From Hyphomicrobiales bacterium (lineage in GTDB: Bacteria; Pseudomonadota; Alphaproteobacteria; Rhizobiales; JAJFHR01), in contig JAJFHS010000006.1 of NCBI GenBank assembly GCA_021775475.1, positions 21,530 through 85,529 of the forward strand: a DNA stretch of 64,000 nucleotides, read 5' to 3'. The stretch's first letter is position 1. Each line of letters starts with the position of its first letter. Of the stretch, positions 16,628 to 20,063 are shown piece after piece. The translations under genes and the position numbers were made by a program. The notes under the pieces are model-generated. The model ran no database searches. It saw only the letters and a list, made by a program, of their open reading frames with translations, and was not told where the DNA came from.

Positions 16628-16750
16628 ACCCCTCATCCATCAGCTTACGCTACCACCTTCTCCCGCAAGGGGAGAAGGGAAACTATAATGTAACCTTTTC
16701 CTTCTCCCCTTGCGGGAGAAGGTGGCGCCGAAGGCGTCGGATGAGGGGTT
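16628..16750. repeat. Intergenic palindromic (REP-like) element, family A copy 1
   Basis: cccctcatcc...ccaccttctcccgcaaggggagaagg / ccttctccccttgcgggagaaggtgg...ggatgagggg inverted arms; second copy at 18003. Confidence 0.85.
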
Positions 16751-16764
16751 GAGCGTGGTTGTTT

Positions 16765-16836
16765 TTACTCTGCCTCATCCGATGATTTCAAACCGCCCCC
16801 ACCAGGTTCCTCATTGGCTTCAACAACAGGTGTCGG
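16765..16836 (-). pseudogene. Stranded remnant of a thiC 3' end
   Basis: Translates PTPVVEANEEPGGGGLKSSDEAE*, versus the intact ThiC end [23 protein letters not shown]; followed by the same downstream sequence and palindromic element as thiC. Confidence 0.8.
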
Positions 16837-16837
16837 T

Positions 16838-17737
16838 CTATCTCAGTTGTTTTTTGTAGATAATACCATTGGATCTTATCCGCAGGCGCCAACGGTTGCC
16901 TCCTTGCAAAGCAAAGAATGTATAGCGTTGCTGAAGGTCACAGTCTTTCCACTGGACATTACCAAAACCCTGGCCCCGTATAACATTCGCAAGTCTATTA
17001 ACATTCGGGCAGGCTTGCGTTACAGGTTGGGGTCGCGGTCGCGGATTAATGCGTGGCGGATTATAGGGTGGCGTATAGGGTCGCGTATAGGGTGGCGTAT
17101 AGGGTCGCGTATAGACCCGCCTTACCGGTGGGCAAAACCCCGTGGGTGATCTTCGCGCCACATCCAGTGCATTCTGTGAGGGCTCGCTGCCGAGACGCAG
17201 TCTCGCCTGATTGGCAAATCTTCTGAGCGCGGCTCTGCTGCCACGCCCCCAAATACCATCAACCCGTCCCGGCAGGCAGCCAAGACGCTTGAGTTCGCTT
17301 TGCAACGGGTAGGCGAGGCTGACGGTTGGGCGCGGATAAACCGGTTGTTGCGGATAAACCGGTGATTGAGGGTTGCGCCACTGCGGTGGGTTATAGGGTG
17401 GATACACTGGCTGGCGTGGCGGATACACCGGTGGTGCGACTGGTCGCGGGGCGACAGGTTGCGGTGCTGGCCTTGATGGCAGGACACCATTGGTCTTGAA
17501 ATATGTACCTGTGCCGGTCAACGGATACATCGTACCATTAGCCAGTCCTGATCTGGAATGGCATGAGGAACAGGCTATATTGCCGTTTGCCTGCGAATAC
17601 TGCTTGATGGCGTGAGCCGGTCTCGACATGATCGATATCTGGAACGAGGCGACCAAGCTCAGAACCGCAGCACAAAAAATAACTTTGGACCTTATTAAAG
17701 CGATTTTTGCATTACCGGATAAATTATCTTTTTTCAT
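16838..17737 (-). CDS. Secreted Pro-rich protein with N-terminal CXXCH monoheme motif, peptidoglycan-binding domain and PepSY-like C-terminal domain
   Basis: Signal peptide ending PAHA; CSSCH (17558-17572); Pro/Tyr repeats; LQSELKRLGCLPGRVDGIWGRGSRAALRRF; GGGGG RBS before the ATG. Confidence 0.75.
   Translation of the reverse strand: MKKDNLSGNAKIALIRSKVIFCAAVLSLVASFQISIMSRPAHAIKQYSQANGNIACSSCHSRSGLANGTMYPLTGTGTYFKTNGVLPSRPAPQPVAPRPVAPPVYPPRQPVYPPYNPPQWRNPQSPVYPQQPVYPRPTVSLAYPLQSELKRLGCLPGRVDGIWGRGSRAALRRFANQARLRLGSEPSQNALDVARRSPTGFCPPVRRVYTRPYTPPYTRPYTPPYNPPRINPRPRPQPVTQACPNVNRLANVIRGQGFGNVQWKDCDLQQRYTFFALQGGNRWRLRIRSNGIIYKKQLR
17062..17114. repeat. 12-bp tandem repeat (tatagggt[g/c]gcg x4) inside the Pro-rich gene
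   Basis: Read directly; encodes YTRPYTPPYTRPYTPPY. Confidence 0.9.
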
Positions 17738-18002
17738 TTTTCCCCCAAAAAATTAAAAAACTATACAGCCTGCACCTTATACCGACTCTATTTTTTCAGA
17801 CTTAAAAAATATTTACAGCCCCCATAATTTCACTACTCGATCACTCAATCATGGAATGCTTCTCTTAGCAATGCCCGATTATGAAGATATTTTTCATCAA
17901 AAACAGAAAATGCAGTTAATGTTCATCGAAAGCCTGATACAAATCGCACTGCCCTGCACAGTGGCAAACCATCGACTGAAGCGTTTTGGAAAACCCCACG
18001 CT

Positions 18003-18154
18003 AACCACGCTCACCCCTCATCCGTCAGCTGCGCTGCCACCTTCTCCCGCAAGGGGAGAAGGGAAAGGTTTCTTTTATTTAACATCATAGCTTCCCTTCT
18101 CCCCTTGCGGGAGAAGGTGGCGCCGAAGGCGTCGGATGAGGGGTGAGCGTGGTT
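18003..18154. repeat. Intergenic palindromic (REP-like) element, family A copy 2, just downstream of the thiC stop
   Basis: aaccacgctcacccctcatccg ... cggatgaggggtgagcgtggtt perfect outer arms plus inner ccaccttctcccgcaaggggagaagg arms. Confidence 0.9.
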
Positions 18155-18158
18155 GTAT

Positions 18159-20063
18159 TTACTCCGCCGCATCCGTTGACTTTAAACCATCCCCGCCAAG
18201 TTCCTTATTTGCTTCGGTGACAGTTTTTTCCGGCAGGTAAAGCTCAGAGCCGAGTTTTTTGAAACTCTCGCTCATCTGCGCCATGCCTTGCGTCTGGTCA
18301 TTGAGCTTTGATGCATAATCTCGCACATCCTGGGTGATTTTCATCGAACAGAACTTAGGCCCGCACATGGAGCAGAAATGCGCCACCTTGTGCGCTTCCT
18401 TGGGCAGGGTTTCATCGTGATACTGCAGGGCTGTTTCCGCATCAAGCCCCAGATTAAACTGGTCTTCCCACCTGAACTCAAAGCGCGATTTGCTCAAGGC
18501 ATCATCATGTTCCTGAGCGGCCGGATGGCCCTTGGCAAGATCGGCAGCGTGGGCGGCAATCTTGTACGTGATAACCCCGGTTTTGACGTCATCGCGGTTG
18601 GGCAGGCCCAAATGTTCCTTAGGTGTCACATAACACAGCATGGAAACGCCAAACCAGCCGATCATGGCCGCCCCGATGCCTGATGTAATATGATCGTACC
18701 CCGGTGCAATGTCTGTCGTTAAAGGCCCGAGCGTATAAAACGGTGCCTCACCGCATTCGCGCAGTTGCTTGTCCACATTGACCTTGATCTTGTGCATGGG
18801 CACGTGACCCGGACCTTCAATGATCACCTGACAGCCCTTGGCCCAGGCTACTTGTGTCAACTCGCCCAGGGTTTCAAGTTCGGCAAATTGCGCTTCATCA
18901 TTGGCGTCGGCAATCGAGCCCGGACGCAAGCCGTCGCCAAGCGAAAAGCTCACGTCATACATGCGCATGATGTCGCAGATATCCTCGAAATGCTCATAAA
19001 GAAAACTCTCCTTATGATTATTCAGGCACCATTTGGCCATGATAGAGCCGCCGCGGCTGACAATGCCGGTAAGGCGTTTGGCGGTAAGGTGGATGTAACG
19101 CAGGCGCACACCAGCATGAATGGTAAAATAATCCACACCCTGTTCACATTGCTCAATCAGCGTATCGCGATAAAGCTCCCAGGTGAGCGCCGTTGGATCA
19201 CCATCACATTTTTCTAACGCCTGATACATTGGCACTGTGCCAATTGGAACGGATGAATTGCGGATTATCCATTCGCGTGTGGTGTGAATATTACGACCGG
19301 TGGACAGATCCATCACCGTATCCGCACCCCAGCGCGTCGCCCACACCATCTTGTCGACTTCTTCGGCAACGCTTGATGTTACGGCTGAATTACCAATATT
19401 GGCATTGATTTTAACCAGGAAATTACGCCCGATAATCATCGGCTCGGATTCCGGGTGGTTGATATTGAGTGGAATAACAGCGCGTCCGCGGGCTACTTCC
19501 GAGCGCACGAATTCAGGTGTAACAAACTCAGGAATTTCCGCGCCAAAGCTTTCGCCGTCTGCCACACGTTGAGCCGCCTTTTCAACCGCCTGTTTGCGCC
19601 CCATATTTTCGCGCTCGGCAATATAGATCATCTCCTTGGTGATGATTCCCTTGCGCGCATATTCAAGCTGGGTAACAGCTTCGCCCTCTTTACCGCGCAG
19701 AGGTTTGTGCCTGACCGGGAAATCACGTTCCCGGTGTTTGTCACCAACCACACCATTGTCTTCAAGCTTGATTTCGCGGCCCTCATAAGGCTCAACATCG
19801 CCACGCTCCAACACCCATTTTTCCCGCATTCTCGGCAGGCCTTTTTCCAGATCGATCGTATGGTCATCATCGGTATAAATTCCTGATGTGTCATAGATCC
19901 GCAACGGATCATCGCCGGAAGAAGGATGGACAAAAATCTCCCGGTGCGGCACGCGCACATCAGGATCAGAAGCGCTTGTGGTATAGACTTTTTTGGAGCC
20001 CGGCAAAGCACCGGTCGTGACTTTTAAATCAGCCAGAATGTCGGTTGGTTTGTGAATATTCAT
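18159..20063 (-). CDS. thiC: Phosphomethylpyrimidine synthase ThiC
   Basis: [48 protein letters not shown]; TPP riboswitch upstream. Confidence 0.98.

Follow-up and report, generated by a model that had tools for sequence, protein, structure and literature searches.

This locus, from an uncultured marine alphaproteobacterium, raises the question of how a single gene came to lie between trhO and thiC, which converge, with a stranded copy of the thiC 3' end beside it and neither neighbor damaged. The window is a 64,000-nucleotide stretch of a Hyphomicrobiales genome (assembly GCA_021775475.1, contig JAJFHS010000006.1, positions 21,530 to 85,529, forward strand; genome G000 below), and all genomes compared are metagenome assemblies. 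A first-pass annotation of the window had suggested that a donor fragment, made up of a thiC end, a palindromic element, and a cargo gene, recombined into thiC and used its 3' end as the landing site. Here, we report that the repeats around the gene probably arose as a long target-site duplication during insertion of a ~1.15-kb unit between trhO and thiC.

The left-hand gene, trhO (15594 to 16595, plus strand; Pfam UPF0176_N and Rhodanese), is an intact open reading frame for a rhodanese-type tRNA U34 hydroxylase. It converges with an equally intact thiC (18159 to 20063, minus strand; Pfam ThiC_Rad_SAM, E value of 4e-183), upstream of which lies a TPP riboswitch (20106 to 20217, minus strand; Rfam RF00059, 70.8 bits). 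Between the two genes, an insert of 1,153 nt is enclosed by two target copies. Copy 1 opens with the trhO stop codon and intergenic DNA (16591 to 16627), continues with a family-A palindromic element (16628 to 16749; hairpin of −96 kcal/mol, z = −11) and a spacer, (t)gagcgtggttgt(tt) (16750 to 16764), and closes with a stranded thiC tail of 19 codons including the stop, EANEEPGGGGLKSSDEAE* (16765 to 16821, minus strand), which is out of frame with the cargo gene. Copy 2 has the same order: a dead copy of the trhO stop with intergenic DNA (17975 to 18012), a second family-A palindrome (18013 to 18144; −109 kcal/mol, z = −14), the spacer gagcgtggttgt(at) (18145 to 18158), and the last 19 codons of thiC (18159 to 18215), the functional version of the remnant. 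The insert consists of an upstream non-coding part with the promoter region (17738 to 17974, minus strand), the cargo gene (16838 to 17737, minus strand), and a short 3' flank (16822 to 16837, minus strand).

Positions 16591 to 16821 and 17975 to 18215 form a direct repeat (blastn and alignment; 81.9% identity over 243 nt, E value of 3e-60). The repeat noted in the first-pass annotation is thus real, with palindrome, 12-nt spacer, and thiC C-terminus confirmed in both copies, and it is longer than described, extending further left to the trhO stop (actgaagcg) and a 37-nt intergenic stretch (z = 8.1 against shuffles). This stretch in copy 1 is homologous to the intergenic DNA of G001 and L036 and of L066, in which the site is empty. 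Aligned by itself over 58 nt, the remnant matches the native thiC tail at 81% identity, far better than chance (z = 21 against shuffles). The left intergenic stretch, the spacer, and the thiC tail each occur in exactly two copies genome-wide, and only the embedded palindrome is multi-copy; because other palindrome copies lack these neighbors, the repeat is a segmental duplication, not two element insertions. The alignments indicate that the duplicated unit is the whole target, about 245 bp of landing site.

The same observations bear on the proposal that there is no true duplication, only two independent palindrome insertions or an assembly chimera of two strains. The palindrome is indeed multi-copy, and related assemblies have contigs that end at it, but the 58-nt thiC tail and its companions are absent beside other palindromes, a truncated thiC tail against the cargo is explicable solely as a second copy, and the same architecture is present in independent assemblies from other samples. 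The proposal is thereby already refuted, and we give it a negligible probability.

The palindrome itself (~122 to 132 nt at this locus) belongs to a family dispersed over ~12 loci in G000 and giving 13 to 34 matches in congeners; by its multiple copies, intergenic position, and long stable hairpin, it is REP/MITE-like. As with REP/BIME-type or MITE-like elements, family-A members are dispersed, 120 to 150 nt long, and nearly perfect as hairpins, and they lie between genes at gene ends. Unlike in a REP/RAYT pairing, the RAYT-like Y1 transposase gene of the genome (C25:857-1243) is flanked by a different repeat family. A role of the palindrome as a recombination site was considered and rejected, because the repeats extend past it and because family A is absent from the repeats of other cases (L029, L038/L032, C52, C7, and C76; described below). 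Judged from these sequences, the palindrome is a passenger inside the duplicated target and not the cause of the duplication.

One credible gene was found in the insert. Its product (299 amino acids; recovered from open reading frame, Pfam, and family alignment) has a signal peptide, a CSSCH heme-type motif, Pro-rich repeats, and a Cys-containing C-terminal module. The Pfam match to PG_binding_1 is weak (E value of 1.4e-4, under the curated cut-off), and the product is predicted to be a secreted Pro-rich CxxCH/peptidoglycan-binding-like protein. The remnant had been placed directly after the stop codon of this gene; 16 nt (16822 to 16837) in fact intervene, and they are part of the cargo unit, since they are also conserved after the cargo stop of G004, L032, and L036. 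The junction of this flank with the remnant shows the microhomology TTGA.

No recombinase, transposase, integrase, or other mobility gene was detected among the open reading frames and Pfam matches of the insert, contig C46 gave no Phage_integrase match and no tyrosine recombinase, and no integrase was found in or beside any of the inserts examined. Intragenomic duplicative transposition was rejected, as no near-identical source copy was found in the genome for any of four inserts (0/4). Terminal inverted repeats picked out by eye at the unit ends (CTGTT..TTTTGA) were dropped because the unit boundaries vary between contexts.

An empty site with a single thiC end had been predicted for relatives, and the trhO-thiC site is empty in four related lineages, with spacers of 49 nt (G003), 20 nt (L066), 122 nt (L069), and 143 nt (L067). 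One palindrome is present in L069 and in L067 (there of another type), and none in G003 or L066. Both flanks align contiguously at the empty sites, and the intergenic and thiC-tail parts of the repeat align to L066, L069, and G003. Two open reading frames after trhO in L067 were considered as a different cargo and rejected; they are thiC split by a frameshift.

Occupied sites in relatives show that the duplication has two sides. In the sister species represented by L036/L037 (90.5% nucleotide identity in thiC, 94.5% in trhO), the remnant/cargo junction is shared with the window, and on the thiC side, 53 nt from the interior of the trhO 3' end survive where the window has the sequence of 17975 to 18012. 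This dead trhO end means that the duplication is two-sided and not a thiC-specific landing pad; with the trhO stop and intergenic DNA also present in the thiC-side copy of the window, the earlier view of the thiC 3' end as the landing site does not hold. A third occupied site, in G004, has the cargo with a 78-nt thiC remnant (87% identity, z = 37) that joins the cargo unit at ATGAACAG/ATGACCAG. An origin from thiC was considered for a segment of this site, labeled X, and rejected; the segment, also present in L033, is part of the cargo unit. No junction is common to the window clade and G004, and L066, the sister of G004, is empty, which leaves two histories: a single old insertion, then decay and a loss, or two separate insertions at a hot spot.

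The arrangement recurs at other loci. In relatives, the cargo family is flanked by target duplications of 105 to 157 nt at three further loci: L029 (105 nt, z = 9.3; the target is single-copy on C21 of G000), L038 with L032 (157 nt, 92%), and L040 (129 nt, 84%). The sites of the family (trhO-thiC, C21 intergenic DNA, an epimerase 3' end, and C49) share no one conserved attachment site. A scan of the genome contigs with the cargo family gave G004 as the sole match, and no repeat flanks the cargo paralogue on C14 within a distance of 1 kb. When all 3,054 open reading frames of G000 were scanned, three unrelated single-gene inserts, on C52, C7, and C76, were found between two-copy repeats of 172 to 194 nt; the background in this genome is 1 in 600 random open reading frames (about 0.2%) with a flank-to-flank score of at least 42. 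The other cargo proteins comprise one with a caspase domain, one with a PIN domain, and one that is small and acidic. No repeat shorter than 105 nt was seen, leaving the range of 30 to 100 nt empty; this gap also fits a homology-dependent (RecA) integration step.

The C52 and C7 inserts are the younger cases. Their sites are empty in congeners, their repeats are 92 to 95% identical, and both repeat copies carry G000-specific substitutions. Since lineage-specific substitutions occur in both copies, it was resident DNA that was duplicated and not a foreign end that was imported.

These inserts also bear on a decayed genomic island or prophage, in which an element with an integrase would have entered the thiC 3' end, formed attL and attR, and lost all but one cargo gene. 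Direct repeats of a gene 3' end are the classic scar of a tyrosine integrase, as with e14, and ~17 tyrosine recombinases are encoded in the genome. Such an origin is nonetheless highly improbable: in G000, L036/37, and G004, the single-gene unit stands alone, without fragments of a phage or an integrase, the 1.1-kb unit recurs alone at four loci with its own conserved non-coding parts on both sides, the young C52 and C7 inserts are likewise single genes without integrase remains, and the repeat crosses intergenic DNA into trhO, far past any att core.

The sequence of the remnant bears on the question of a donor. Of the 19 codons (stop included), 9 are identical between remnant and thiC, 5 differ synonymously, and 5 differ non-synonymously; the first-pass tally, over 20 codons, was 8, 6, and 6. 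The synonymous share (5 of 10 changes, on only 19 codons) does not differ significantly from random change (P = 0.06 to 0.13). Remnant and thiC differ at 10 of 48 sites, against 7 to 12 of 48 between functional thiC tails of sister lineages, a divergence inside the range of orthologs that can be explained without a diverged donor. The thiC of G004 has the state of the remnant at three differing codons, which places those changes on the functional branch. The claim that both copies evolved as functional thiC ends in different lineages is unsupported on these numbers, and so is that of a donor fragment recombined into thiC, given the two younger insertions of G000 in which resident DNA was duplicated with no foreign end. 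What stands is the integrase-free insertion of the Pro-rich gene between trhO and thiC, with a stranded thiC tail left behind.

A donor would return in a Campbell-type or e14-like capture, the first-pass proposal in its full form, by which a small circle with the cargo and its own trhO-thiC junction enters through one crossover, homologous or site-specific. The copies on both sides would then be hybrid, the working thiC tail being the donor's and the stranded one native. The order tail-cargo-tail fits this reading, the repeat lengths would suffice for RecA, the 50-nt run that is identical between the palindrome copies (18095 to 18144 and 16700 to 16749) could support excision of a circle, and the thiC tail of L036 has states of the G000 remnant, a hint of exchange between copies. 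The end of the repeat 0 to 24 nt after the stop codon in C52, C76, C7, and L038 is also comparable to the icd end and icdC at e14. We nevertheless consider such a capture unlikely. Every new locus would still require an initial event linking cargo to target, the presence of the cargo family in four different targets excludes one att specificity, no integrase accompanies the inserts, the shared substitutions of the young cases would require a donor of the same species, and the remnant is no more diverged than orthologs are, with no significant synonymous excess.

Campbell insertion-duplication is exemplified by the partial 3'-CS duplication in complex class 1 integrons, which is ascribed to ISCR1 circles. 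The locus resembles Campbell integration in its homology-cargo-homology product and RecA-compatible repeat lengths and differs from the ISCR1 case in that neither a replicating or rolling-circle element nor a circular form is in evidence and the duplicated DNA comes from the resident lineage itself. The e14 prophage served as a control, in which the duplicated icd end measured 165 nt (~93% identical), with the repeat ending at the stop codon. At e14 and phage 21 in Escherichia coli icd, as here, a gene 3' end is present twice, with one copy completing the gene and one stranded (icdC), and the e14 repeat is similar in size to the 157- to 194-nt repeats found here. Unlike these inserts, which occupy many sites and have no such genes, e14 has an integrase (IntE), an excisionase (XisE), and one fixed att site; its repeat stops at the icd stop codon, whereas the repeat here spans intergenic DNA into another gene. 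Against a long target duplication, the outer repeat boundaries 0 to 24 nt past a stop codon, seen in four of the other cases, resemble element-borne replacement gene ends such as that of e14 at icd.

Insertion with long target duplication was reportedly described for restriction-modification genes by Nobusato et al. in 2000 (Gene 259:99). The class is defined by repeats of >30 bp, up to about 420 bp, around an insert without mobility genes, as established by alignment to an empty site (PMC2853133); the criteria of Furuta, Abe & Kobayashi (2010; PMC2853133) included an insert of <20 kb, and restriction-modification cargo was there a criterion of selection. The locus fits this class, with a non-restriction cargo and with no integrase or transposase involved. 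As in the class, a small insert without either enzyme is bounded by repeats that both align to the single-copy sequence of the empty site, and the repeats vary in length and often overlap the 3' end of a neighboring gene. The cargo described for the class consists entirely of restriction-modification and Type IV restriction genes, and the proposed cause was that this cargo breaks DNA; in contrast, the cargo here is of another kind, one cargo family occupies four targets, and the host is the marine alphaproteobacterium. The cargo here cannot be making the DNA break.

For the long target duplication that we prefer, the duplicated target would be the resident locus, consisting of the trhO end, intergenic DNA, a pre-existing palindromic element, and the thiC end. 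Because the target lies on both sides of the insert, trhO and thiC are both intact. The trhO-side copy would have kept the working trhO end and a dead thiC tail, the thiC-side copy the working thiC tail and a dead trhO end, and the dead parts would then have eroded by point changes and microhomology-associated deletions that differ by lineage. The duplication itself may have arisen when incoming DNA was joined illegitimately in connection with a break or with replication, a route that the microhomology at a junction leads us to favor. This could have occurred through a template switch re-entering behind the point of departure or through fill-in of widely staggered ends. A search of the genome for Ku gave no match, so capture by nonhomologous end joining is unlikely, and a literature search on thiC-end integration and template-switch insertions in bacteria returned nothing relevant.

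Little is understood of insertion with long target duplication, by which genes are gained without a mobile-element enzyme, and its documentation almost solely for restriction-modification genes has led to the idea that DNA cutting by the cargo drives the event. The same scar is found here around ordinary cargo, at four targets of one secreted-protein family and at three more single genes in the genome, which argues for an accident of host DNA repair or replication, or for an unknown trans-acting reaction, rather than for cargo activity. The locus further illustrates how a gene can be placed between tightly packed convergent genes with neither harmed, and how erosion of the scar in one lineage after another can leave a short orphan gene tail as the sole trace of the insertion.

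It is also conceivable, though we think it doubtful, that the single-gene units of this alphaproteobacterial genus form a class of mobile cassettes that carry no recombinase and insert by a specific reaction, with duplication of ~100 to 450 bp of target. The conserved non-coding ends would then belong to the cassette, the duplication would mostly begin shortly after a host gene's stop codon, no DNA-cutting cargo would be required, in contrast to the proposal for restriction-modification genes, and mobility would be greatest in the Pro-rich CxxCH gene. Upstream of the cargo gene, positions 17738 to 17907 are conserved with G004, L032, L033, and L036, positions 17908 to 17964 are conserved with L036 and partly with L038, and positions 17965 to 17974 are unique. 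Between 17908 and 17974, the homology of G000 to L032 was recovered via L038, as a ~125-nt insertion in L032/L038 interrupts the alignment. A terminator hairpin (ccccggagat..atctccgggg), missing in the window, is present in the unit of G004, L032, L033, and L029.

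A 299-aa gene for a secreted Pro-rich protein (the cargo gene; 16838-17737, minus strand) lies in the window (C46:21530-85529 of the source assembly G000; 76 contigs, 3.86 Mb) between trhO (15594-16595, plus strand) and thiC (18159-20063, minus strand; TPP riboswitch, 20106-20217). It is flanked by two direct repeats, copy 1 on the trhO side (16591-16821) and copy 2 on the thiC side (17975-18215), and is separated from them by a 16-nt flank and by 237 nt of noncoding DNA 5' of the gene, respectively. The cargo protein has a signal peptide, a CSSCH motif, Pro-rich repeats, and a Cys-containing C-terminal module, with a sub-threshold PG_binding_1 match. 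Divergent from thiC is a gene for a DUF4189 secreted protein (20257-20709, plus strand), which is the neighbor in the related locus L068 as well.

The palindrome, spacer, and thiC C terminus that the first-pass annotation read in each copy were confirmed with MAFFT and blastn (82% identity over 243 nt; E, 3e-60). Both copies are built of five parts in a shared order: the trhO stop (actgaagcg) with ~30 nt of intergenic DNA (z = 8.1 versus shuffles), a near-perfect palindrome of 122 to 132 nt (hairpins of -96 and -109 kcal/mol), the spacer gagcgtggttgt, the stop codon of the thiC tail, and the last 18 sense codons of thiC. The remnant, which is the thiC tail stranded in copy 1, translates as EANEEPGGGGLKSSDEAE and a stop, and its match to native thiC is better than chance in formal alignment, as had been supposed (58 nt, 81%; z = 21 versus shuffles). 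The palindrome belongs to a dispersed family (family A) with ~12 loci in G000 and 13 to 34 matches in three congeners; because the intergenic stretch, spacer, and thiC tail lie beside none of its other copies in G000, the repeat is a segmental duplication that happens to hold a palindrome. Judged from sequence, RecA could use the identical 50-nt run common to the two palindromes to delete the cargo. Palindromic repeats of another family (146 nt; 325-470 and 1260-1406; ~18 genome hits) bracket a Y1-transposase (RAYT/IS200-like) open reading frame on G000 contig C25 (857-1243).

Nucleotide homology delimits a mobile unit at 16820-17907 (77% identity to ENA contig L032, 83% to the congener G004), which reaches ~17964 when traced via the related loci L036 and L038. 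The remnant had been placed directly after the cargo stop codon; in fact, 16 nt intervene, and this stretch is part of the cargo unit, since it recurs 3' of the gene in G004, L032, and L036. A conserved terminator hairpin stands right after the cargo stop in the units of G004, L032, L033, and L029; the window and L036 are without it, and there the thiC remnant is joined ~16 nt past the stop, at a TTGA microhomology. L036 shares with the window a small hairpin that resembles a terminator (CACTGTGCAGGGCAGTG; window 17947-17963, minus strand); it lies toward the far upstream end of the unit, on the side of the cargo gene facing thiC. No recombinase is encoded in the insert and no Phage_integrase match was found on contig C46, in keeping with the proposal that capture proceeded without an integrase and stranded a thiC tail; no Ku was found in the G000 genome.

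Trees of trhO and thiC gave the pairs (G000, L036/L037) and (G004, L066), both with 98 to 100% support, then L067, L068, and L069, with the congener G003 outermost. The trhO-thiC site is empty in G003 (49-nt spacer with a small hairpin), L066 (20 nt), L069 (122 nt, one family A palindrome), and L067 (one palindrome of another kind; thiC frameshifted), and L069 matches exactly the predicted preinsertion state of a single thiC end and one palindrome. In L067 (TARA contig; 5658-7569), thiC is split into two overlapping open reading frames (471 and 180 aa) by a frameshift or an assembly error. The interval (window 16596-18158) holds an unrelated 191-aa gene in L068 (JGI Ga0675947_000267; 5680-6255), with no detectable repeats around it; its presence at the same spot makes the trhO-thiC interval an insertion hot spot.

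Metagenome contigs L036/L037 (nucleotide identity to the window, 90.5% in thiC and 94.5% in trhO) have the same remnant/cargo junction as the window, and of the two palindromes they keep just the one next to trhO; in place of the other, a 53-nt remnant that corresponds to window 16467-16531 (83%), within the 3' end of trhO, adjoins the thiC tail. With dead trhO on the thiC side and dead thiC on the trhO side, the duplication is two-sided, and the earlier choice of thiC as the landing site was wrong. In the window clade, the duplication originally ran from trhO codon ~-43 to at least thiC codon -19. G004, with a cargo 83% identical in nucleotides to that of the window, has a thiC remnant from another segment (codons ~-23 to -48; 78 nt, 87%; z = 37), joined to the full unit at ATGAACAG/ATGACCAG. 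The window clade and G004 have no junction in common, and L066, the sister of G004, is empty; possible histories are one old insertion with a target of ~450 nt, followed by lineage-specific deletions and clean loss in L066, or the same gene family put twice into the hot spot. The cargo tree is a trichotomy (pairwise identities, 86 to 88%), and the reading of the window's repeat is identical under either history.

According to the first-pass annotation, both copies had evolved as functional thiC ends, one of them borne by a donor fragment together with the cargo. Over 19 codons, the remnant and the thiC tail have 9 identical, 5 synonymous, and 5 nonsynonymous codons, a synonymous share with a P value of 0.06 to 0.13 (expected synonymous fraction under random change, 0.23 to 0.29). 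Half of the path between the copies is on the functional copy anyway, and G004 thiC has the remnant's state at three differing codons, which places those changes on the branch leading to G000 thiC. Of 48 sites compared, 10 differ between the remnant and the thiC tail of the window, and 7 to 12 between pairs of the functional tails of G000, G004, and L036; these figures do not bear out two functional ends. The G000 remnant and its orthologous counterpart in L036 show differences at 15 of 48 sites, and the intergenic part is ~75% identical alike among copy 1, copy 2, and the orthologous sequence of the congener G001. On these alignments, decay in place would account for the divergence of remnant and intergenic part, and neither a diverged donor nor a donor-borne functional thiC end is needed.

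Cargo homologues (57 to 76% aa identity) occur in other contexts, with a duplicated target on both sides where the flank suffices. The L029 homologue, whose neighbors are a metallophosphatase gene and a 262-aa gene, is flanked by 105-nt repeats (4544-4648 and 6054-6158; z = 9.3); G000 contig C21 has the corresponding site in a single copy. In the overlapping contigs L038 and L032 (97.7% identical), a 157-nt repeat (L038 31-187 with L032 2471-2627; 92%) from the 3' end of an epimerase-like gene brackets the unit plus a DedA gene; in L040, the repeat is 129 nt (1-128 and 1818-1946; 84%). These three targets are different, and each is single-copy in G000. A 340-aa cargo paralogue in G000 (C14:34144-35166; 71% aa identity in the N-terminal part), with no flanking repeat within 1 kb, is kept in G001, G002, and G004 and absent from G003; an integrase-N-terminus-like open reading frame (240 aa) lies 1 kb upstream of it.

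A scan of all 3054 G000 open reading frames yielded three further single-gene inserts of the same kind (trhO-thiC locus, paralogues, and dispersed repeats left out of the count); only 1 of 600 random G000 open reading frames had a flank-to-flank local score of at least 42. One insert lies 3' of an MFS transporter gene and encodes a 527-aa caspase-domain (Peptidase_C14) protein that also matches PG-binding weakly (C52:36871-38454; with repeats, C52:36494-39052, L043 1995-4561); it is flanked by repeats of the MFS gene 3' end (172 to 180 nt, 95%) that begin exactly at its stop codon, and the site is empty in G004, G003, and G001. The repeats around a 493-aa PIN-domain protein (C7:17827-19308; with repeats, C7:17535-19564, L042 2036-4065) comprise 17 nt of intergenic DNA and the 3' end of a 300-aa gene (194 nt, 92%); the empty site is 25 to 27 nt in G004 and G002. 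The third insert, encoding a 158-aa acidic protein (C76:13474-13950; with repeats, C76:13299-14330, L044 1300-2331), has repeats from the 3' end of an arsC-like (ArsC/Spx-family) gene (175 nt, 79%), the functional copy stopping 4 nt past the stop codon. On both C52 and C7, the two repeat copies share substitutions missing from the congeners, which shows that it was the resident DNA that became duplicated. The G000 genome contains no near-identical second copy of any of the four inserts, and the cargo was therefore acquired from elsewhere.

From this resident origin of the duplicated DNA with foreign cargo, the variable repeat lengths (105 to at least 243 nt), the microhomology at the G004 junction, and the lack of recombinase and Ku, we infer that incoming DNA was joined illegitimately, in connection with a break or with replication, possibly through a template switch re-entering behind the point it had left or through filling in of ends with a wide stagger. 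A Campbell-type, homology-dependent step is kept alive by the lower limit on repeat length (repeats below ~100 nt were not seen) and by outer boundaries 0, 4, 17, and 24 nt past a stop codon in four cases.

Insertion with long target duplication denotes an insert of <20 kb without mobility genes, flanked by direct repeats of >30 bp (tabulated up to ~420 bp) that both align to an empty-site genome. Every type of restriction-modification gene has yielded cases, and the DNA breaks these genes cause may be what lies behind them (Furuta et al. 2010, PMC2853133). The trhO-thiC locus fits this description in every structural respect, but its cargo is no restriction system; it is a new nonrestriction case of a known, little-studied class, of which the genus of G000 supplies several datable examples. 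The best-known stranded gene end is that of e14/icd, where the 165-nt icd end and the stranded icdC are ~93% identical; unlike the trhO-thiC locus, e14 encodes an integrase and uses one fixed site, and its repeat goes no further than the stop codon.

Where the palindrome has been lost or replaced (L036, L066, and G004), thiC has a remodelled end of a few codons. The protein ends in ...STDAAE in the window, ...KSSDEG in L036 (~3545-3600), ...KTTGKRGESG in L066 (5503-5560), and ...STDEI in G004 (L019 4483-4500), the new end in L036 and L066 being read out of the palindrome terminus or intergenic DNA.
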